Source of the DNA: Klebsiella phage SEA1f
Sequence record: OR287805.1
Length of the DNA stretch: 38,946 nt
Direction: 5' to 3' (one strand)
Shown: positions 5,373-38,946 of the stretch, one piece after another
Position numbering within the stretch: the first letter of the stretch is position 1
Layout of the letters: each line of letters opens with the position of its first letter
Translations under genes and position numbers: made by a program
The notes under the pieces: model-generated
Database searches by the model: none
Told to the model about the DNA's origin: nothing
What the model saw: only the letters and a program-made list of their open reading frames with translations

Positions 5373-5843
5373 ATGTTCGGTAAGTCCAAACTTAAATCAC
5401 GAATCAAAGAGTTGAACATGAAGGTGGCATACTTGGAGCGAGTCGTAACGGTCAGGGATAAAGACAACGAGAGACTGAAGGTTAAACTTGCTGAATCAGA
5501 GCGTAAGCGCCTAACGCCACCACCGGCTGTAACTGTCAAGCGTATGGTAGGCATCAGGTTCAAGGCACTGTTCAACGGTCTGTACCAACCGACTGAGTTC
5601 AAGACAGGGCCGGGTAGCTGTGGGAAGACAGTGACGCACTTCACCGTATCGAAGACTGAACGCACCATTACCATCCACCAGCACCACGTAGACGGGTCTC
5701 AGAAAGACTTTGAGTACCGACTGAGCGACATCGACGGTCGCATCCAGTATGACTACGAGCTGGTTAAGGTCTACGGAAAAGAGGCCGAACGTGAGCGAGC
5801 GCTTCAGGCATTCATGCAGGTAAGGCCGCGCATCGTCTTCTAA
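5373..5843 (+). CDS. Hypothetical early protein, 156 aa. Predicted N-terminal coiled coil; basic.
   Basis: RBS gaagaggt lies 8 nt upstream. Its stop overlaps the next promoter. No homolog recognised. Confidence 0.6.
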   Translation: MFGKSKLKSRIKELNMKVAYLERVVTVRDKDNERLKVKLAESERKRLTPPPAVTVKRMVGIRFKALFNGLYQPTEFKTGPGSCGKTVTHFTVSKTERTITIHQHHVDGSQKDFEYRLSDIDGRIQYDYELVKVYGKEAERERALQAFMQVRPRIVF

Positions 5844-5861
5844 ACTATCACTATAGGATTA
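5839..5861 (+). promoter_or_regulatory. Phage RNAP promoter (phi1.1-like), +1 G at 5856.
   Basis: tctaaactatcactataggatta. Confidence 0.8.
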
Positions 5862-5905
5862 GACTCAAGGTCATGACTCAAAGTCGTGGCCTTCATGATT
5901 AACCC
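5859..5905 (+). promoter_or_regulatory. Conserved hairpin element, copy 1 of 3. Candidate RNase III processing site (R1.1 analogue).
   Basis: ttagactcaaggtcat-N-gtggccttcatgattaaccc. An 8-bp stem forms between aaggtcat and gtggcctt (two G-U pairs). Same motif at 12992..13036 and 35917..35965. Confidence 0.5.
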
Positions 5906-5934
5906 TAAATAAACACTACTGGAGATTTAACCGT

Positions 5935-6114
5935 ATGTATCAGAACACTATCAACTTCGAGCGCATCCGTGAACGTCAGCAGACTGAAGGTTACATTCCG
6001 AAGGGCCGCAAGCTGAACAAGACTAAACGTGGTGGGGGTATCAAAGGCGCTTTCCGAAACGCTGAAGGAAAAGACTCTCTGGTCAACCAAGAGAAATACT
6101 TCGTAGGAGTGTAA
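5935..6114 (+). CDS. gp1.1-like small basic protein, 59 aa.
   Basis: Not in the ORF track (<60 aa). Contains KGRKLNKTKR, identical to the T7 gp1.1 motif. RBS GGAG lies 10 nt upstream. Confidence 0.75.
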   Translation: MYQNTINFERIRERQQTEGYIPKGRKLNKTKRGGGIKGAFRNAEGKDSLVNQEKYFVGV

Positions 6115-6118
6115 TCAA

Positions 6119-6382
6119 ATGGGCCGACTCTATAGTGGCAACCTCAACGCTTTCAGAGCAGCATGTAACAGGCTTTATCAGTTAGACTTCGCTGTTATAT
6201 CTCAGGAGTTTCAAGACCATGTGTCACGCCAAGAGTGCATGAAACTCAGGGTGGAGGACCGAGCCGGTAACATCTTCGCGCTTGAGACCTTCGCACACTA
6301 TGATGAAGACGTTCTGTATAATACTGCAACCGACTACCTCAACGGTCTCGCTGACCAACTCGACACATGGAGCAAAGCATAA
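6119..6382 (+). CDS. gp1.2, inhibitor of host dGTP triphosphohydrolase (Dgt).
   Basis: 87 aa. MGRLYSGNL..F.AA.N.L.QLD.AVI N-terminus nearly identical to T7 gp1.2. Confidence 0.88.
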   Translation: MGRLYSGNLNAFRAACNRLYQLDFAVISQEFQDHVSRQECMKLRVEDRAGNIFALETFAHYDEDVLYNTATDYLNGLADQLDTWSKA

Positions 6383-7476
6383 TGACAACTATTAAAACCA
6401 ACCCGCACCGCGCTGTAGATTACTCTGAGTCAGGCATTAAGAAGGCACTGGAAGCAGCCGGGTCTCTGGAAGCTGAGGTGAAGTACGATGGTGTGCGCCT
6501 GAATCTCCCTGTCTTCCCTACTGGTGAGACTCAATGGTTGAGCCGTGAGTCTAAACCTCTCCCAGCACTTGAGTGGCTGTCAGTCCTTACCCACATTGAC
6601 AACATCGTCGAGGACCAGCAAAAAGCTAGCGACTGGCGGTGGTTCCTTAAGCAGGCTGGCTACGAAGGCATGGGATTAATGATTGATGGTGAGGTCATGG
6701 TACCTGCAACCGACTTCAACACTTCCTCAGGTCTAATCCGTACCATGTGGTCAGACACTAAGAACTACGCTTGGAATGGCAACCCCGATGCTGACATCGA
6801 TACCAAGAAGAAGCATAAGGTCCCTTTCCATCTGGCAACCGACCACATCCGCGTGGTTGTCTACGGTATCGTGGACCTCAACGTCATCACCGACCCGAAA
6901 GCCGAAGGTCCTATCCATAGCGTAACCCGCCTGAAGGCCGAAGCTATAGTCCCTCTCCTCCAGAAACACTTCCCTGAAATCGACTGGGTTTTGGCTGAGT
7001 CACACACGGTCTATGACCTTGAGTCGCTCAACTCCCTGTACGAAGAGAAGCGTCTGGAAGGACATGAGGGTCTGGTAGTCAAGGACCCACTGGGTAAATA
7101 CAAGCGTGGCAAGAAGTCAGGCATGTGGAAGATGAAGCCGGAGGAGACCATAGACGGAACTGTATGCGGTCTAGTGTGGGGGACTCAAGGTAAGGCTAAC
7201 GAAGGTAAGGTCATTGGCTTCGAGGTTCTGCTTGAGGATGGCATGGTGGTTAATGCCTGTGGCCTGACTGAAGAACAGAAGGATGAGTTCACCAAACGTG
7301 TGAAAGACTACACGACCGAGTGTAATGCTAACGAAGCTGGGTGCTGGTACATGAACCCATACGAAGGATGGCAGTGCGAAGTTCTCTTCATGGAGCGGTT
7401 CCCTGATGGCTCCCTTCGTCATCCCAGCTTCAAGTGCTGGCGTGGAACGGAAGACAATCCAACCGTTAAGAGCTAA
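6382..7476 (+). CDS. ATP-dependent DNA ligase (gene 1.3).
   Basis: Homologous to T7 ligase throughout (IKTNP, KYDGVR adenylation motif K, EGHEGLVVKDP, KRGKKSGMWKMKPE, GSLRHPSF). Start is chosen at the second ATG (6382, TAATG with 1.2); the ORF track begins at 6367. Confidence 0.93.
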   Translation: MTTIKTNPHRAVDYSESGIKKALEAAGSLEAEVKYDGVRLNLPVFPTGETQWLSRESKPLPALEWLSVLTHIDNIVEDQQKASDWRWFLKQAGYEGMGLMIDGEVMVPATDFNTSSGLIRTMWSDTKNYAWNGNPDADIDTKKKHKVPFHLATDHIRVVVYGIVDLNVITDPKAEGPIHSVTRLKAEAIVPLLQKHFPEIDWVLAESHTVYDLESLNSLYEEKRLEGHEGLVVKDPLGKYKRGKKSGMWKMKPEETIDGTVCGLVWGTQGKANEGKVIGFEVLLEDGMVVNACGLTEEQKDEFTKRVKDYTTECNANEAGCWYMNPYEGWQCEVLFMERFPDGSLRHPSFKCWRGTEDNPTVKS

Positions 7477-7485
7477 CTAAACGTC

Positions 7486-7524
7486 AACCCAGTGGTCTTC
7501 GGACTGCTGGGTTTCTTTGCGTTT
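7486..7524 (+). terminator. Early (TE-like) rho-independent terminator after the ligase gene.
   Basis: Hairpin cccagtggtc-TTCG-gactgctggg (UUCG tetraloop) followed by tttctttgcgttt. Confidence 0.7.
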
Positions 7525-13052: not shown

Positions 13053-15224
13053 ATGTTTGACCTTAAGAGTATCTGGGGTTCTGACATCGAGACAAACGGT
13101 CTCCTTGATACAGTCTCCCAGTTTCACTGTGGGGTCCTGATTAACGCCGAGTCGAATGAGACCCTTAAGTATGGGGTAGCTCCGATGGTCGGTATCGTCG
13201 GTGGATTCAAAGAGTATGTTCATAAAGTGGAAGAGATTGCCGCATCACCTGATGGTATGCTGGTATTCCACAACGGTATCAACTATGACGTCCCTGCTAT
13301 TGACAAGCTGAAACGTCTGTACCTTGGGAAACGCTTTAACTTCCCGAAACACAAGATGATTGATACATTGGTGTTGGGACGCTTGATGTATCCCAACATT
13401 AAGTTCTCAGACATGGGCGCGGTGAAAGCTGGTCGTCTGCCACCTAAGATGATGGGACGTCAGTCTCTTGAGGCTTGGGGCTATCGTCTTGGTGAGATGA
13501 AAGGTGAGTACAAACACGATTACGTTGCCAAGTGCAAGGCTGAAGGTATCGAATATAAGGCTGGGGACGAATGGTTGTTCCCATCTCAGGAGATGCTGGA
13601 CTATAACGTTCAAGACGTTGTGGTCACACTGGCGTTGTTCAAGAAGTTCCTGACTGACAAGTATTACTTCCAGTCTGAACAGTTCGCTTTCGACCAGATT
13701 TATGCGTTGCGTCTGGAACATGATGCTGCGTGGACCTGTGCGAAGATGGAACGTAATGGCTATCCAATGAACACCGAGATGGTCGAAGGCTTATATCGTG
13801 AACTCACCGTCAAACGTGCAGAGCTGCTGGACAAGCTGCGCTCGACTTTCGGTAGCTGGTACGCACCAAAGGGAGGCAAGGAGTTCTTCAAGCACCCCCG
13901 GACAGGCAAGGACCTTCCGAAGTATCCGCGAGTCGTGTATCCTAAAATAGGTGGCATCTTTAAGAAGCCGAAGAACAAAGCTCAACGCTTAGGTCTTGAA
14001 CCTTGTGAGCGCGATATGCGAGACACGATGGAGGGAGCACCGTTCACGCCTATCACTTACGTTGAGTTTAATCCGGGAAGCGGAGACCACTTAGCGAAAG
14101 TCCTGATGGAGCGTGGATGGGAGCCTGTAGACTTCACTGACACCGGGAAACCTGTAGTCGATGACGAGACGTTAGAACACGTTAAGTTACCAGATGAAGA
14201 GGCTCAGGCTTGCGTAGAGCTGGTCCGCGAGTATCTGGTAGTACAGAAGCGCATCGGTCAGGCGGCTGAAGGTAAGAACGCATGGTTGAAACTTGTAGGT
14301 CCAGACGGACGTATGCACGGTTCAATCAACCCATGTGGTGCAGTAACCGGACGTGCGACCCATAGTACACCAAATATGGCTCAGGTTCCGGCTAACGGTG
14401 CCCCATACGGTGAGACTTGCCGTGGTGCTTTCGGTGCAGCGTGGAACAAGACTGACGGTGAGCCAGACCCTTGGATTCAGGTTGGTGTGGATGCTTCAGG
14501 TCTTGAGCTTCGCTGTCTGGGGAACAGAGCGGCTCCGTTTGACGGTGGTGAATACGCCAAGACTGTGGTCGAAGGTGACATCCACTGGGCCAATGCAGTA
14601 AACGCTGGGTTAGCACCTAACGTCCAACGCGATAAGTCTAACCACGACCATGATGCTTTCCGTAATAACGCTAAGACGTTCATCTATGCGTTCCTGTATG
14701 GTGCAGGGGCCGCGAAGATTGGACTGATAGTTGGCGGTGGTAAGAAGGAAGGTGCTGCCCTGATGAAGAAATTCATTGAGGGTACACCAGCTATCAATGA
14801 TCTGCGAGAGGCTGTGCAGAACACGCTCATCTCAGAGTCCAAATGGGTAGACGGTGAGAACATAGTGAAGTGGAAACGTCGATGGCTGAAAGGTCTGGAC
14901 GGTCGCCGCATTCACATCCGGTCGCCACACTCAGCACTTAACGCTCTACTTCAGGGTGATGGTGCGGTTGTCTGTAAGCACTGGATTGTCGAGACCGAGC
15001 GTATGCTCGAAGAGGCCGGGTATGTCCACGGCTGGGAAGGAGACTTCGCGTACATGGCTTGGGTTCACGATGAGCTACAGATTGCGTGTCGTACTCAGGA
15101 GATTGCCGAAGAAGTCGTCAAGATTGCTCAACTTGCTATGCGTAAGGTGGGTGAGTTCTATAACTTTAAATGTGTCCTTGATACCGAAGGTAAGATTGGA
15201 CCAACGTGGAAGGAGTGTCACTAA
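13053..15224 (+). CDS. DNA polymerase gp5 (family A, with 3'-5' exonuclease).
   Basis: Collinear with T7 gp5: SDIETN exo I, HNG..YDVPA, EAWGYRLGEMKGEYK, DYNVQDVVVT, HPRTGK.LPKYPR, VTGRATH, NAKTFIY.FLYGAG, YMAWVHDE. Start at 13053 (GGAGG then 7 nt, MFDLK..); the ORF-track start at 13017 lacks an RBS. Confidence 0.96.
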   Translation: MFDLKSIWGSDIETNGLLDTVSQFHCGVLINAESNETLKYGVAPMVGIVGGFKEYVHKVEEIAASPDGMLVFHNGINYDVPAIDKLKRLYLGKRFNFPKHKMIDTLVLGRLMYPNIKFSDMGAVKAGRLPPKMMGRQSLEAWGYRLGEMKGEYKHDYVAKCKAEGIEYKAGDEWLFPSQEMLDYNVQDVVVTLALFKKFLTDKYYFQSEQFAFDQIYALRLEHDAAWTCAKMERNGYPMNTEMVEGLYRELTVKRAELLDKLRSTFGSWYAPKGGKEFFKHPRTGKDLPKYPRVVYPKIGGIFKKPKNKAQRLGLEPCERDMRDTMEGAPFTPITYVEFNPGSGDHLAKVLMERGWEPVDFTDTGKPVVDDETLEHVKLPDEEAQACVELVREYLVVQKRIGQAAEGKNAWLKLVGPDGRMHGSINPCGAVTGRATHSTPNMAQVPANGAPYGETCRGAFGAAWNKTDGEPDPWIQVGVDASGLELRCLGNRAAPFDGGEYAKTVVEGDIHWANAVNAGLAPNVQRDKSNHDHDAFRNNAKTFIYAFLYGAGAAKIGLIVGGGKKEGAALMKKFIEGTPAINDLREAVQNTLISESKWVDGENIVKWKRRWLKGLDGRRIHIRSPHSALNALLQGDGAVVCKHWIVETERMLEEAGYVHGWEGDFAYMAWVHDELQIACRTQEIAEEVVKIAQLAMRKVGEFYNFKCVLDTEGKIGPTWKECH

Positions 15225-15696: not shown

Positions 15697-15902
15697 GTGA
15701 ATACTTACGGGTCCTAGCGGCCATTAAGTCCTGCCCGAAGACCTTCCAGTCCAACTATGTGCGCAACAACGCTGCACTTGTGGCTGAGGCTGCGAGTCGT
15801 GGACATCTAAGCTGCCTGTCTATGGACGGGCGCAACAACGGTGCGTGGGAGATTACCGCTGCTGGCACCAAGTTCCTGAACCAACACGGAGGCTGTCTAT
15901 GA
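15693..15902 (+). CDS. gp5.7 (inhibitor of sigma-S RNAP in T7).
   Basis: 69 aa. MS.YL.VL.AIKSCPKTFQSNYVRNNA.LVAEAASRGH.SCL...GRN.GAWEITA.GT.FL...GGC is almost identical to T7 gp5.7. Confidence 0.9.
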   Translation: MSEYLRVLAAIKSCPKTFQSNYVRNNAALVAEAASRGHLSCLSMDGRNNGAWEITAAGTKFLNQHGGCL

Positions 15903-16117
15903 GTCAAGACGTATCAGGGCGCGAACTTAAGGTAGGACAGAAGGTTGCTTTCTGTCTGGCTGGAAACTCATACGCAATGTGTATAGGCGAAGTCGTCCGG
16001 GTAATGCCTAAGACGGTAGCAATAAAGCATAAGACATTTATTCGCTGGAAAGGAGCTGCCGAGGAAGTCGAGACGGTACGTGCATTCTCTTCAGTGTGCA
16101 TAGTTGAGGAGGCGTAA
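15899..16117 (+). CDS. Hypothetical 72-aa protein in the position of T7 gene 5.9 (RecBCD inhibitor). Not similar to gp5.9.
   Basis: ATGA overlap with the 5.7 stop. Coupled to gene 6. Confidence 0.55.
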   Translation: MSQDVSGRELKVGQKVAFCLAGNSYAMCIGEVVRVMPKTVAIKHKTFIRWKGAAEEVETVRAFSSVCIVEEA

Positions 16118-16983
16118 TGTCTGACAAGAAGATAGCTCTGGTTCTGGATGGTGACTATCTGGTATTCTCTTCTATGGCTGCGGCTGAGGATGAGACCGAT
16201 TGGGGCGATGATATTTATACTCTGATTTGTGACCACGCCAAGGCTCGTCGTATCCTTGAGAACACCATCGCCGAAATAGTTAATAAGCGAAAGGCGTGGA
16301 AAGACGCTAAGATTGTTATGTGCTTCACCGATGACGTGAGCTGGCGCAAGTCAATACTACCGACCTATAAGGCCAACCGTAAAGGTTCTCGCAAGCCTGT
16401 AGGTTACAAGAAGTTCGTAGCCGAAGTGATGGCTGACCCACGGTTCAACAGCTTCCTACGTCCTACGCTTGAGGGTGATGACTGTATGGGTATCATCGGG
16501 ACACGACCTCAGATTGTAGGTTGTGACCATGCGGTTCTGGTATCCTGCGATAAGGACTTCAAGACCATCCCGAACTGTGAGTTCTTCTGGTTAACAACTG
16601 GTGAAATCCTGAGTCATACGACTGCTGAGGCGGACTACTGGCACATGGAGCAGACCATCAAGGGTGACACTACAGATGGCTACGGTGGGATTCCGGGGAT
16701 GGGTGAGGATACCACTCGTGCATTCCTTGACGAGCCGTACTACTTCGTGCAGGAGAGCCGTGAGCTTAAGACTGGTAAGAACAAAGGACAGATTAAGACT
16801 GAGTGGAAGAAGTATCCAAAGCGTGAAGACATGACGCTGTGGGACTGCATGGTGACTCTGGCTGCTAAAGCTGGGATGACCGAGGAGGAACTTCTGGTCC
16901 AAGCTCAGGTCGCTCGTATTTGCCGAGCCTCCGACTACGACCCTAAGTCCAAGGAGGTCATCCTGTGGACACCATCCATGTAA
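16117..16983 (+). CDS. 5'-3' exonuclease gp6.
   Basis: 288 aa. LDGD.LVF..M, ICDHAKAR.ILE, YKANRK, KPVGY, LEGDD.MG.I, VSCDKDFKTIPNC.F.W.TTG.IL, TIKGD.TDGY.GI.G, TLWDC....AKAGMTEE matches T7 gp6. Confidence 0.95.
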   Translation: MSDKKIALVLDGDYLVFSSMAAAEDETDWGDDIYTLICDHAKARRILENTIAEIVNKRKAWKDAKIVMCFTDDVSWRKSILPTYKANRKGSRKPVGYKKFVAEVMADPRFNSFLRPTLEGDDCMGIIGTRPQIVGCDHAVLVSCDKDFKTIPNCEFFWLTTGEILSHTTAEADYWHMEQTIKGDTTDGYGGIPGMGEDTTRAFLDEPYYFVQESRELKTGKNKGQIKTEWKKYPKREDMTLWDCMVTLAAKAGMTEEELLVQAQVARICRASDYDPKSKEVILWTPSM

Positions 16984-18114: not shown

Positions 18115-18358
18115 ATCAATCAGTAAGGCTTTCAAGAAAGTGGTTAAAAGTACGTTAGGGACCGTTGGTCTTGGCTATGACGATGCGCCTAAGGTTGTTG
18201 AGGCTCCAACCCCAGCAGCAGCACCAGTGGTAGTACCGAACGACAAAGTGGAAGATGTGGATACCGAAGTTACTGCATCTGACGAGAAGAAAGTGAAGCG
18301 TTCCGGTAAGCGTAGCCTTCAGGTATCTCGTACCTCTGGTGGAGGTATTTCTATTTGA
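18107..18358 (+). CDS. gp7.3 tail/adsorption protein.
   Basis: MGK...KA.KKV.KS N-terminus and the KRSL.VSRTSGGGI.I C-terminus match T7 gp7.3 (KKSLSVARSSGGGINI). Confidence 0.85.
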   Translation: MGKSISKAFKKVVKSTLGTVGLGYDDAPKVVEAPTPAAAPVVVPNDKVEDVDTEVTASDEKKVKRSGKRSLQVSRTSGGGISI

Positions 18359-18747
18359 CACCGTGTCATGAATGGGGTGGATACTGCACCAAGGATGGCT
18401 ACGGTGAAACTAGGGTAGAGGGGCGCAAGGTTCGCGTTCACCGCCTAGAGTGGACGAAACACTACGGACCCATTCCGCATGACAAAGTGGTTCGTCATAA
18501 GTGTGACAACCCTAAGTGTTTTAATATTGAACACCTAGAGTTAGGAACAACACAGGATAACACGGCTGACAGAGTGTCTCGGGGTCGAAGCGCCAAAGGA
18601 GAGGATAACGGTAACGCAGTCCTCACTATTGATATTGTTAATGAGATTCGCGAAAGTGGTATGTCTCAGCGCACAATAGCGAAGACCTATGGAGTGGCAC
18701 AGTCTACCGTATCTAAAATCAAACGCAATGTAACGTGGAGGTCATAA
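18355..18747 (+). CDS. HNH homing-endonuclease-like protein with a C-terminal HTH. Gene 7.7 position.
   Basis: HNH motif H-x-CDNPKC-x-N-x-EHL-x-GT-x-DN. C-terminal SQRTIAKTYGV.QSTVSKI helix-turn-helix. TTG start with GGAGG 9 nt upstream. Confidence 0.75.
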   Translation: MTPCHEWGGYCTKDGYGETRVEGRKVRVHRLEWTKHYGPIPHDKVVRHKCDNPKCFNIEHLELGTTQDNTADRVSRGRSAKGEDNGNAVLTIDIVNEIRESGMSQRTIAKTYGVAQSTVSKIKRNVTWRS

Positions 18748-20425: not shown

Positions 20426-21310
20426 ATGTCTCAATCAGTTTATGCCGAGTTCGGCGTTAGCTCTAATGCAATCACTGGTTCCGTTGAGGACCTGAACGAA
20501 CACCAGAAGTCTATGCTTGAACAGGACGTAGCTGTTCGTGATGGCGACGACGCTATTACCTTCAAGCAACTGGAAGCCGAAAACGAAGAGGCGACCGAAG
20601 AAGACGAGAACGTCGAAGAGACTGAAGGTGAAGAAGACCACGAGTCAGATGACGAAGAGTCTGAGACCGATGGTGAGCATCCTGAGTTCATCGAACTAGG
20701 TGATGCACCAAAAGAGCTGACCGAAAGTGTCACCGCTCTGGATGAAAACGAAGCTGCATTCGACGACATGGTGTCTTCTGCTGTAGAAGCTGGCAAGGTC
20801 ACTGCTGATGAAATTACCGCTATCAAGGCTGAATACGCCAAGGACGGTAAGCTGTCTGACGCATCCTACGCTAAGTTGCAGGAAGCAGGCTACACCAAGC
20901 GTTTCGTAGATTCGTTTGTCCGTGGTCAGGAAGCTCTTGCTGAACAGTATGCTGCTGGTGTGGTTCGCTACGCTGGTGGTGCTGAACAGTTTAACCGCAT
21001 CCTGTCACACCTTGAGTCCAACGACCAGTCAACTCGTGAAGCACTGGAATCTGCTATCGTTCGTAAGGACATTGCTACTACCAAAGCTCTGCTGAATCTG
21101 GCTGGCAAGACTCTGGGTAAAGCTGTTGGTGTTAAACCTCAGCGTACCATCACCACTCAGGCTAAACCTGTGGTCGCACCTAAGGCTCCTCAGACCGAAG
21201 CATTCAGCTCTAAGGCTGACATGATTAAGGCTATGAGTGACCCGCGATACCTGCGTGACACTAAATACACGATGGAAGTTCGCGCTAAGGTAGCTGCCTC
21301 AAGCCTGTAG
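20426..21310 (+). CDS. Scaffolding protein gp9.
   Basis: 294 aa, very acidic N-half. YASFGV.S....GSVE..E...ML, GYTK.F.DS..RGQEAL.EQY, IKAMSDPRY match T7 gp9. Confidence 0.93.
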   Translation: MSQSVYAEFGVSSNAITGSVEDLNEHQKSMLEQDVAVRDGDDAITFKQLEAENEEATEEDENVEETEGEEDHESDDEESETDGEHPEFIELGDAPKELTESVTALDENEAAFDDMVSSAVEAGKVTADEITAIKAEYAKDGKLSDASYAKLQEAGYTKRFVDSFVRGQEALAEQYAAGVVRYAGGAEQFNRILSHLESNDQSTREALESAIVRKDIATTKALLNLAGKTLGKAVGVKPQRTITTQAKPVVAPKAPQTEAFSSKADMIKAMSDPRYLRDTKYTMEVRAKVAASSL

Positions 21311-21311
21311 G

Positions 21312-21334
21312 ACTAAACTATCACTATAGGGAGA
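21312..21334 (+). promoter_or_regulatory. Strong class III promoter for the capsid gene (phi10), +1 G at 21329.
   Basis: ctaaactatcactatagggagac. The transcript starts GGGAGACC...GGTTTCCC (21329..21359) and can form the 8-bp 5' stem-loop conserved in the T7 phi10 leader. Confidence 0.85.
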
Positions 21335-21436
21335 CCAAGAGACAGACTCAAGGTTTCCCTATTACTTCAGTCCATACGGATTGGGCGTACAGTAAGTAAT
21401 AAACTTTATCTTTCAATTGAATAGGAGAATTATCAT

Positions 21437-22430
21437 ATGGCAAACTTTCCGGGTCAGAAAATTGGTACAGACCAAGGTAAAGGCAAATCTGGTTCAGACG
21501 CGCTGGCGTTGTTCCTGAAGGTATTTGCTGGTGAAGTCCTGACCGCATTCACTCGCCGCTCTGTAACTGCTGACAAGCATATTGTCCGTACCATTCAGAA
21601 CGGTAAGTCTGCTCAGTTCCCGGTCATGGGTCGCACCTCTGGTGTGTATCTTGCTCCGGGTGAGCGACTGTCCGATAAGCGTAAAGGTATCAAACATACC
21701 GAGAAAGTGATTACCATTGATGGTCTGCTGACTGCCGATGTGATGATTTTCGACATTGAAGACGCGATGAACCACTATGACGTTGCTGGTGAGTATTCCA
21801 ACAATGGCTATCCTGTGTAACCTCCCATCCGCATCCAACGAGAACATCGCTGGTCTTGGTACCGCGTCCGTACTTGAAGTTGGTAAGAAAGCTGACCTCG
21901 ACACCCCAGCTAAACTGGGTGAGGCAATCATCGGTCAACTGACCATTGCTCGTGCGAAGCTGACCGCCAACTACGTTCCTGCTGGCGACCGTTACTTCTA
22001 CACCACGCCGGACAACTACTCTGCAATCCTCGCGGCTCTGATGCCGAACGCTGCTAACTATGCTGCGCTGATTGACCCAGAGACTGGTAACATCCGTAAC
22101 GTTATGGGCTTCGTTGTTGTTGAAGTTCCGCATCTGGTTCAGGGTGGTGCTGGTGAGACTCGTGGTGAAGATGGTATCTCTATCGCTTCCGGTCAGAAAC
22201 ACGCATTCCCGGCGACTGCTTCTGGCGACGTTAAAGTTGCTATGGATAACGTTGTGGGTCTGTTCTCTCACCGTTCTGCTGTGGGTACTGTGAAGCTGCG
22301 TGATTTAGCGCTGGAACGTGACCGTGACGTCGATGCTCAGGGTGACCTGATTGTTGGTAAGTACGCTATGGGTCACGGTGGTCTTCGTCCTGAAGCGGCT
22401 GGCGCACTGGTTTTCAGCTCAGCGATGTAA
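21437..22430 (+). CDS. Major capsid protein gp10A (T3-like). The reading frame is interrupted by a +1 frame change near 21800..21806.
   Basis: Frame 1 (21437..21820) matches the gp10 N-terminus through DAMNHYDV.EY(S/T), then stops after ...NNGYPV. Frame 2 (from about 21804) continues MAILCNLPSASNENIAGLGTASVLEVGKKADL... to the C-terminus GHGGLRPEAAGA, matching the T3 capsid. The two frames are offset by +1. Confidence 0.85.
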
Positions 22431-22561
22431 GCACCTTTAGCCAACCTAACGTCGCTACAGTAGCGGCCGCACCTGAAGAGGAGACTCTAACTCCTCAACA
22501 GAAAGCTGCGCGTACTCGTGCTGCGAATAGGGCCGCTAAACTGGCTAAGTCCAACAACTAA
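22409..22561 (+). other. Programmed -1 frameshift site GGTTTTC (22409..22415) and the 10B C-terminal extension. Minor capsid protein 10B would end at 22561.
   Basis: Slippery heptamer G GTT TTC lies in the 10A frame 5 codons before the stop, as in T7. The -1 frame is open for 49 codons: ...FQLSDVSTFSQPNVATVAAAPEEETLTPQQKAARTRAANRAAKLAKSNN*. Confidence 0.75.
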
Positions 22562-22564
22562 TTG

Positions 22565-22606
22565 AAACCCCTTGGGTGCCTTCGGGTGCTTGAGGGGTTT
22601 TTTGCT
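22565..22606 (+). terminator. Tphi-like late terminator.
   Basis: aaccccttgggtgccttcgggtgcttgaggggtttttt: GC-rich hairpin plus U-tract immediately after 10B, similar to T7 Tphi. Confidence 0.85.
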
Positions 22607-22624
22607 TAAAGTGAGAGGAGACTT

Positions 22625-23191
22625 ATGGCTCAATACATTCCACTGAATGCTAACGATGACTTAGATGCCATCAACGATATGTTAGCCGCTATCGGTGAAC
22701 CAGCAGTCCTACAGCTTGACGAGGGGAACGCTGACGTCTCGAACGCTCAACGTATCCTGCATCGCGTCAATCGTCAGGTCCAAGCTAAAGGCTGGAACTT
22801 TAACATCAACGAAGCAGCTGTCCTGACACCTGACATCCAAGACAATAGGATTCGATTCTTGCCGTCATACCTTCGTGTAATGACCGCTGGGGCCACCAGC
22901 TACTACAGCAACATGGGTGGGTACCTGTACGACCTGTCCACCCAGTCAACCACTTTCACCGACCCTATCACGGTAGAGCTTGTGGAGATGAAGCCATTCT
23001 CCGAGATGCCTGTGGTCTTCAGGGACTACATCGTAACTAAAGCTAGCCGTGAGTTCAACGCTAAGTTCTTCGGTAGCCCAGAGTCAGAGCTATACCTTCG
23101 TGAGCAGGAAGCAGAACTCTATCAGCAGGTTATGGAGTACGAGATGGACACTGGTCGCTACAACATGATGTCTGACATCGGGAGGGACTAA
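22625..23191 (+). CDS. Tail tubular protein A gp11.
   Basis: 188 aa. Matches T7 gp11 (L....D...I...A.IGEP.V, RIL..NRQ.Q..GW.FNI.E, F..YIVTKASR.FN..FFG.PE, EYEMD.G.YNM). Confidence 0.93.
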   Translation: MAQYIPLNANDDLDAINDMLAAIGEPAVLQLDEGNADVSNAQRILHRVNRQVQAKGWNFNINEAAVLTPDIQDNRIRFLPSYLRVMTAGATSYYSNMGGYLYDLSTQSTTFTDPITVELVEMKPFSEMPVVFRDYIVTKASREFNAKFFGSPESELYLREQEAELYQQVMEYEMDTGRYNMMSDIGRD

Positions 23192-35653: not shown

Positions 35654-35913
35654 CGCAGATGGACTTAGAGAAGTTCCTCTTAATGCTGGATACTGAACGT
35701 GCTCGACTCATGCTGCAAGACCTTCGGGATGACTCTAAGCGTTCACCTCAGCTCTACAACGCCATTGAGAAGCTGCTTGCTCGTCACAACTTTGTGTTAA
35801 GCAAGGTGTCTGTTGACGAGAAGACTCTGGCTGATATGGAGGCCCTGAACGCAGAGTACGATAAGGTGCTTTCAGCGACTGAGGATAATGACACCGGGTA
35901 TGGCGTTCAATAA
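35650..35913 (+). CDS. Small terminase subunit gp18.
   Basis: 87 aa. RSPQLYNAIEKLL.RH.F is identical to the T7 gp18 motif. Confidence 0.9.
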   Translation: MTQMDLEKFLLMLDTERARLMLQDLRDDSKRSPQLYNAIEKLLARHNFVLSKVSVDEKTLADMEALNAEYDKVLSATEDNDTGYGVQ

Positions 35914-38679: not shown

Positions 38680-38921
38680 CGCCGTAATGGTAACAATCAA
38701 CGAAAGTAAGACCTAAGGTCAGTTCATAGCTGACGCTACTCTACTGACCTTAGCTACTGTAGTCAAGGACTTTAGGTAACACCTTAAGAGAAGCTCACTT
38801 AGGGTCATCCTACTTATTGGTCTATCCTAGCGTCGCCTGACCTACGGTCCTTGACCTACAGTGGCCTTGGCCTACAGTAGTGACGATGAGTTTTGGACCA
38901 AAAGTTTGAGACCACATCTCA

Positions 38922-38946
38922 CAGTTCAAGAACCTCAAGTCTCCCC
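38922..38946 (+). repeat. Start of the putative terminal repeat and physical left genome end (TCTCACAG...), 25 nt before the window end.
   Basis: tctcacagttcaagaacctcaagtctcccc joins with the window start ccataggccc to give a T7-like left end. T7 begins TCTCACAGTGTACGGACC...CCCCCATAGGGGG. Confidence 0.55.

Follow-up and report, generated by a model that had tools for sequence, protein, structure and literature searches.

The stretch of DNA analysed here (the window; 38,946 nt) is the complete genome of a T7-like phage that belongs to the genus Kayfunavirus (Autographiviridae, Studiervirinae). The nearest phage record is only ~95% identical to it over the first 25 kb. For the region examined most closely, 21300-22700, 261 phage records match, the top match being Escherichia phage vB_EcoP_SP7 (MT682707; hereafter SP7). 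In and beyond this region, the scaffolding protein gene (20426..21310) is followed by the capsid gene, the gene for tail tubular protein A (22625..23191), a small gene of the ASCH/DUF3850 type and the gene for tail tubular protein B. The capsid gene (gene 10) accordingly has scaffolding gene 9 on one side and tail tubular gene 11 on the other, with promoter-like and terminator sequences of its own, and the order is that of SP7, ST31, SH3 and T3. As for the ends of the molecule, the window has no terminal direct repeat (1-30 and 38917-38946), and its last 30 nt (TCTCACAGTTCAAGAACCTCAAGTCTCCCC), continued into its first bases (CCATAGG...), resemble the left end of a T7-type genome. It looks like an assembly in which the terminal repeat was collapsed and which was opened ~30 nt inside that repeat; the missing repeat, together with a T7-type left end that reads across the two ends, fits an automated assembly.

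A capsid gene of this group is expected to be one continuous ORF of ~340-350 codons. That is not what we found: the gene is split between pieces in different frames, one of 127 aa and the other of 208/217 aa (Table 1). The initial annotation had already described a mid-gene split, and all of its coordinates held when the sequence and the list of ORFs were read again. The first frame begins with the ATG at 21437, reads ...DAMNHYDVAGEYSNNGYPV and ends ...EYSNNGYPV* with the stop at 21818-21820; it consists of 122 native codons (M1..N122), five out-of-frame codons (NGYPV) and TAA. The remainder of the protein (MAILCNLPSASNENIAGLGTASV ... GHGGLRPEAAGALVFSSAM) is encoded in the +1 frame from 21804 to 22430. 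That frame runs open from 21777 to its end at 22430, giving the ORFs of 208/217 aa, and the 3' piece proper is made up of an orphan A (21803), codons 140-347 (MAILCNL...VFSSAM) and TAA. At the junction, the letters are tcc (21797-21799), aaca (21800-21803) and atg (from 21804). When the SP7 capsid protein was mapped onto the window with tblastn, its residues 1-122 fell on 21437-21802 (98.4%) and its residues 140-347 on 21804-22427 (99.0%). Both pieces matched the Pfam family Gp10A-like (PF21703) significantly, with ~16 profile positions absent between them, and their PDB matches are 9vvq, 7y23 and T7 gp10A.

Table 1. Features of the gene 10 region, in order along the window.
Feature	Position	Strand	Basis and remarks
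Phage-RNA-polymerase promoter-like sequence (...ATCACTATAGGGAGA)	21312..21334	+	Read from the sequence; intact; located where T3 has its annotated phi10 promoter, directly after gene 9
Shine-Dalgarno sequence AGGAGA	21423..21428	+	Read from the sequence; 8 nt before the gene 10 ATG; intact
5' fragment of the major capsid gene (gene 10)	21437..21820	+	127-aa ORF; Pfam Gp10A-like profile positions 1-64, E = 2e-27
Deletion junction	21802..21803	+	50 nt present in all relatives (SP7: CAGTTGGGTGAAGCTCTGGCTATCGCTGCCGATGGTGCGGTTCTGGCTGA) absent between these bases; alignment with SP7/ST31/SH3 and blastn
3' remainder of gene 10, +1 frame	21803..22430	+	Pfam Gp10A-like profile positions 81-279, E = 5.5e-66
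Heptamer G GTT TTC (GGTTTTC), likely 10B slip site	22409..22415	+	Sequence; correct register near the end of gene 10; identical in SP7
Open -1 frame extension, 10B-type tail (…QLSDVSTFSQPNVATVAAAPEEETLTPQQKAARTRAANRAAKLAKSNN*), ~48 codons	22416..22561	+	Translations; identical in SP7
GC-rich hairpin followed by a T run, T-phi type terminator	22566..22605	+	Sequence; intact; counterpart is the annotated SP7 terminator (1618-1649 of the SP7 sequence L001)

The relationship between the two pieces became clear from alignments. When 21700-21900 was aligned with the intact genes of SP7, ST31 and SH3, one unbroken 50-nt gap with near-identical flanks was obtained; blastn likewise opened a single gap against SP7 and two other close relatives (L009 and L010). 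Codons 123-138 are missing in full, and codon 139 (GAA) has lost its first two bases. The placement of the gap is unique, because there is no microhomology at the breakpoints: the bases flanking each of them differ. Since 50 nt amount to 16 codons plus 2 nt, one event yields both the +1 shift and the loss of residues, of which 17 are affected (123-139; QLGEALAIAADGAVLAE in close relatives, QLGESLAMAADGAVLAE in T3). We conclude that the window carries one 50-nt deletion, private to this sequence. This result changes the earlier picture in several respects. The frame change and the missing residues had been taken for two adjoining events, which the alignment to SP7, ST31 and SH3 reduces to a single gap. 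The frame change itself had been attributed to one base inserted in an AACAA run, but the A at 21803 is what is left of codon 139, its third base. The intact relatives confirmed the loss of conserved residues at the site of the frame change. Alignment with the capsids of close relatives and of T3 placed the deletion at the proposed site; its size is 17 residues (50 nt) rather than the ~19 codons, or 19 residues relative to T3, given previously, as the "TA" of the T3 string quoted at that time aligns with the retained "SN".

Does any relative share this arrangement? All 40 of the phage matches listed (of the 261) have an intact 347-aa capsid gene, and each breaks into two or more pieces when aligned to the window; 38 of these 40 span ~1450 nt, compared with 1401 in the window. 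Ten independent contigs (ENA, Logan and NCBI) that encode an identical gp11 were examined, and every one has a 347-aa capsid gene; among the best 120 capsid homologues in the protein collection, lengths range from 337 to 354 aa. The junction sequence was not found in viral, metagenome or genome contig collections, and the truncated products (127, 217 and 208 aa) had no exact matches among the called genes of a large assembly collection. The exact product of the window's scaffolding gene is likewise not on record there, and the window-specific SNP haplotype was not found in viral contigs. Judged by these sequence comparisons, the deletion is seen in no related genome and is private to the window by every test run. 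Intact Kayfunavirus capsid genes, such as those of SP7 and of phage E1004 (PDB 9vvq), are the same gene in the same place, flanked by the scaffolding gene and that of tail tubular protein A; their products share ~98-99% amino-acid identity with both retained pieces. They are continuous ORFs of 347 codons, whereas the window lacks 50 nt of this sequence and is frame-broken for that reason.

The residues that are missing belong to a highly conserved part of the protein. Among 50 aligned homologues (down to 72% identity), none is gapped at residues 123-139; of these 17 positions, nine are invariant and another four almost invariant. The conserved segment Q-L-G-E-x-L-A-x-x-A-D-G-A-V-L-A-E, which all 50 homologues have, is absent from the window. 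In the capsid protein of an intact gene, a tryptic peptide would contain ...EYSNQLGEALAIAADGAVLAEMAILCNLPSASNENIAGLGTASVLEVGK. A structure model of an intact close relative was made; its confidence is low (mean pLDDT 56), and it was used for helix assignment and fold family only. In this low-confidence model, residues 116-144 form one long helix that includes the lost segment, and the best structural matches of the model are the solved T7-type capsids of phage E1004, Kp9 and T7. Capsid proteins of the HK97 type have as their hallmarks an A-domain sheet, a long P-domain spine helix and an E-loop (PMC5701804). The lost segment is predicted from the model to belong to the long helix that follows the E-loop in this fold. 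A literature search for the residue ranges of the T7 spine helix gave nothing directly citable; from the order of the elements and the T7 structure, the deleted stretch is presumably about half of the spine helix. With 17 nearly invariant helix residues gone, even a protein whose frame had been restored would be without a core element.

The rest of gene 10 retains its expected elements, including the signals for the one case of genuine recoding known in this gene, the 10A/10B frameshift of T7 and T3. We take the promoter-like sequence upstream to resemble the T7 consensus. Near the end of T3 gene 10, a -1 frameshift that produces 10B is annotated. The window has a counterpart, as does SP7: the heptamer GGTTTTC, which we take to be the T7 slippery heptamer for the -1 frameshift from which the minor capsid protein 10B results, is followed by an open -1 frame, and this arrangement, as read from the sequence, is kept in the relative. 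T3 differs in sequence from the window at the heptamer and the -1 extension (22409-22561). The frameshift and the break are unrelated. The former is located at the 3' end of the gene, is of the -1 type and is conserved, while the latter is located in mid-gene, is of the +1 type, is unique and is accompanied by no signal.

We also asked how the capsid gene compares with the rest of the genome. When the proteins of SP7 were mapped onto the window, the capsid alone fell in two frames; the RNA polymerase, primase/helicase, DNA polymerase, portal, scaffold, tail, internal virion proteins, tailspike and terminase all gave single ungapped matches. SP7, L009 and L010, the closest three relatives in this region, differ from the window by 85-105 mismatches over ~6.5 kb, and the 50-nt gap is the sole indel. 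Across the 17.7-kb structural block, only two indels separate the window from SP7: the 50-nt gap and a 9-nt indel at 35910, which lies at the extreme 3' end of the small-terminase gene or just past it. A generally error-ridden assembly was thus rejected as an explanation, no other gene being frame-broken. Neither the lost 50 nt nor a second copy of the capsid gene was found elsewhere in the window, and the ideas that the segment had been relocated or that another capsid gene was present were rejected on these grounds.

What would the deletion do? As 50 is not a multiple of three, the frame would shift after N122, and translation would run through five wrong codons to a stop; the remaining gene would be left unused in the +1 frame. 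Nothing in the sequence would let a ribosome rejoin the two frames, and the break is a null lesion and not a functional feature. The initial annotation held that an intact frame is to be expected in a viable phage, an expectation that we share. A genome that is unable to make capsids cannot be a plaque-forming phage, and the deletion is for that reason most likely not in the phage. We therefore favor an origin in an assembly, consensus or editing error, to which we assign a probability of roughly 0.6. According to this explanation, the 50 nt would probably be present in the phage itself and would have been lost while the sequence was being produced, for example when a gap was closed wrongly, through an error in the consensus or in polishing, or by a slip of editing.

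The age of the lesion can be gauged from the retained 994 nt of gene 10. Among 13 relatives, this sequence has three private substitutions (V4F and two synonymous changes); its differences from the relatives are mostly synonymous, and it exhibits no decay. Private changes so few, and mostly synonymous, suggest that purifying selection acted until essentially the present, such that the lesion would be either extremely recent or non-biological. The V4F change (capsid codon 4, at 21446, GTT to TTT) is the only private non-synonymous change in the capsid among the 13 relatives and is located in the N-terminal arm.

Several specific routes to a 50-nt gap were considered. The loss of a line or block of text finds no support: the breakpoint does not coincide with 10-, 50-, 60-, 70- or 80-column boundaries, whether counted from position 1 or from the inferred true left end. 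A single-base homopolymer error does not account for the data either, as the window differs from every relative by 50 nt and no run at the junction is longer than AA. Deletion mediated by a repeat or a hairpin was also left unsupported, since neither joins the breakpoints. Direct repeats do occur near the breakpoints in the intact sequence, at spacings of 27, 36, 72, 87 and 114 nt; none was found at the breakpoints themselves or at a 50-nt spacing in that sequence. The local DNA fold of the intact sequence is unremarkable (z = 0.30 vs. shuffles), and no stem spans the deleted segment. Deletions that arise by repeat slippage or recombination resemble this one in being short, clean and internal, but the breakpoints in the window share no repeat.

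The main alternative is that the deletion is real: a very recent loss of function in a defective genome, either carried along by a co-infecting intact phage or dominating the reads of a mixed or metagenomic sample. We regard this as possible, though doubtful. The absence of any other frame-broken gene sits poorly with an artefact born of a generally poor assembly; the assembly is otherwise clean, and all other genes are intact. Assemblers based on De Bruijn graphs do not normally make clean deletions where there is no repeat. A repeat-free junction would be hard for a k-mer assembler to invent, and because assemblers rarely do so, reads that contain the junction may really exist. The collapsed terminal repeat fits an automated short-read or metagenomic assembly and not a finished, plaque-verified genome, and the undecayed remainder of the gene is what a very recent event would leave. 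Against these points, the deletion would be lethal to a phage growing on its own, and the version of a defective genome could become the consensus only if that genome were in the majority. Neither the junction nor the truncated products occur anywhere else in very large collections. The breakpoints, moreover, have no microhomology or hairpin, while spontaneous deletions in T7 typically form between short direct repeats; a literature search on deletion mechanisms in T7 yielded no directly citable T7-specific source.

A more specific scenario is conceivable, in which a capsid-null "cheater" genome of the T7 type rose to majority by using capsid protein from co-infecting relatives, after the manner of a defective-interfering genome. 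We consider it unlikely. Null mutants in T7 gene 10 grow only if the capsid protein is supplied in trans. Were the deletion real, the window genome would be like them: the rest is intact, no capsid protein is made, and growth would depend on a helper or a complementing host. Those mutants are laboratory constructs or selected mutants, however, whereas the window represents an otherwise wild-type environmental lineage with no sign of a complementing source.

The explanation offered originally, a 1-nt insertion error in tccAACAAtgg beside an independent, tolerated in-frame loss of 17-19 codons, fares much worse, and we judge it very improbable. Removing one base does give a continuous ORF of 330 aa, and dropping an A had been put forward as the repair. 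The resulting protein would still lack the 17 nearly invariant residues, which were found in every homologue examined; the in-frame loss of residues 123-139, with its invariant positions, occurs in none of the 50 aligned homologues and in none of the best 120. In addition, the insertion model calls for two adjacent events (a 51-nt deletion and a 1-nt insertion) where one 50-nt deletion suffices, and AACAA is no homopolymer run.

Last among the explanations is a functional break: a programmed +1 (or -2) frameshift in the overlap between the two frames, or a capsid built from two separately translated polypeptides. The two frames do share a 44-nt overlap (21777-21820). The ATG at 21804 also sits 10 nt after a weak Shine-Dalgarno-like GGTGAG, and independent translation of the second piece is conceivable; that spacing was created only by the deletion. 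The split arrangement occurs in no relative (none of the 40 phage matches listed and none of the ten contigs with an identical gp11). The flanks are those of relatives that do not recode, save for a single synonymous difference ~17 nt before the junction (GTT in place of GTG), and as those relatives need no recoding, the match indicates that no signal has evolved. Read in the zero frame, the overlap is GAC GTT GCT GGT GAG TAT TCC AAC AAT GGC TAT CCT GTG TAA, which contains no known shifty motif. We saw in the 44-nt overlap no stimulator (a rare or stop codon, or an SD-like element at the right spacing) accompanying a shifty site, and a search of Rfam returned no family at threshold. A product that was rejoined, or made in two pieces, would be without the 17 nearly invariant residues and hence would not be a full-length functional protein; that two fragments missing half the helix could serve as a capsid subunit is not credible. 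We thus reject a programmed +1 frameshift or a two-piece capsid, which has next to no chance of being correct, given the lack of conservation, the absence of a signal and the loss of invariant residues. The initial annotation had called a programmed +1 event far less likely than its other explanations, and our findings agree: the arrangement is absent from the relatives, no shifty site is evident, and invariant residues have been lost.

The main value of these observations is in quality control, as they concern a lesion or a sequence error and not a new way of making capsid protein; regarding recoding, nothing new is learned from the break in gene 10. If the record were left uncorrected, annotation would yield two capsid fragments or a pseudogene, and any structural or taxonomic work that drew on the capsid protein would be mistaken. 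What the analysis contributes is an exact description of the fault, namely one gap of 50 nt at 21802|21803. Because the defect is a single 50-nt gap, the question to be put to the reads is whether the 50 nt are present, not how many As they contain. Should the deletion prove to be real and dominant in the sample, it would provide a modest example of a defective T7-like phage genome that depends on a helper.

The window departs from SP7 in other ways as well. Identity to SP7 is 89-91% in the early region (1-2400 and 5800-7500), with many small indels, compared with ~98% in the structural block, and three small SP7 genes have no counterpart in the window; divergence of the early region is typical of the mosaicism of T7-like phages. 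A small gene (15845/15899..16117) meets the 288-aa gene that follows it at 16104-16120, and this junction is divergent and ~53 nt shorter than in SP7. As both ORFs are intact there, we regard this difference as ordinary mosaic divergence and not as a second lesion. Finally, an ORF of 130 aa on the + strand (18355-18747), between the gp7.3-like and portal genes, combines an HNH_3 endonuclease domain (E = 3e-17) with a helix-turn-helix at the C-terminus. The corresponding site of SP7 is empty; SP7 has a different HNH gene at 14172-14441 of its own sequence, which is missing in the window. The 130-aa ORF is likely a mobile homing endonuclease.
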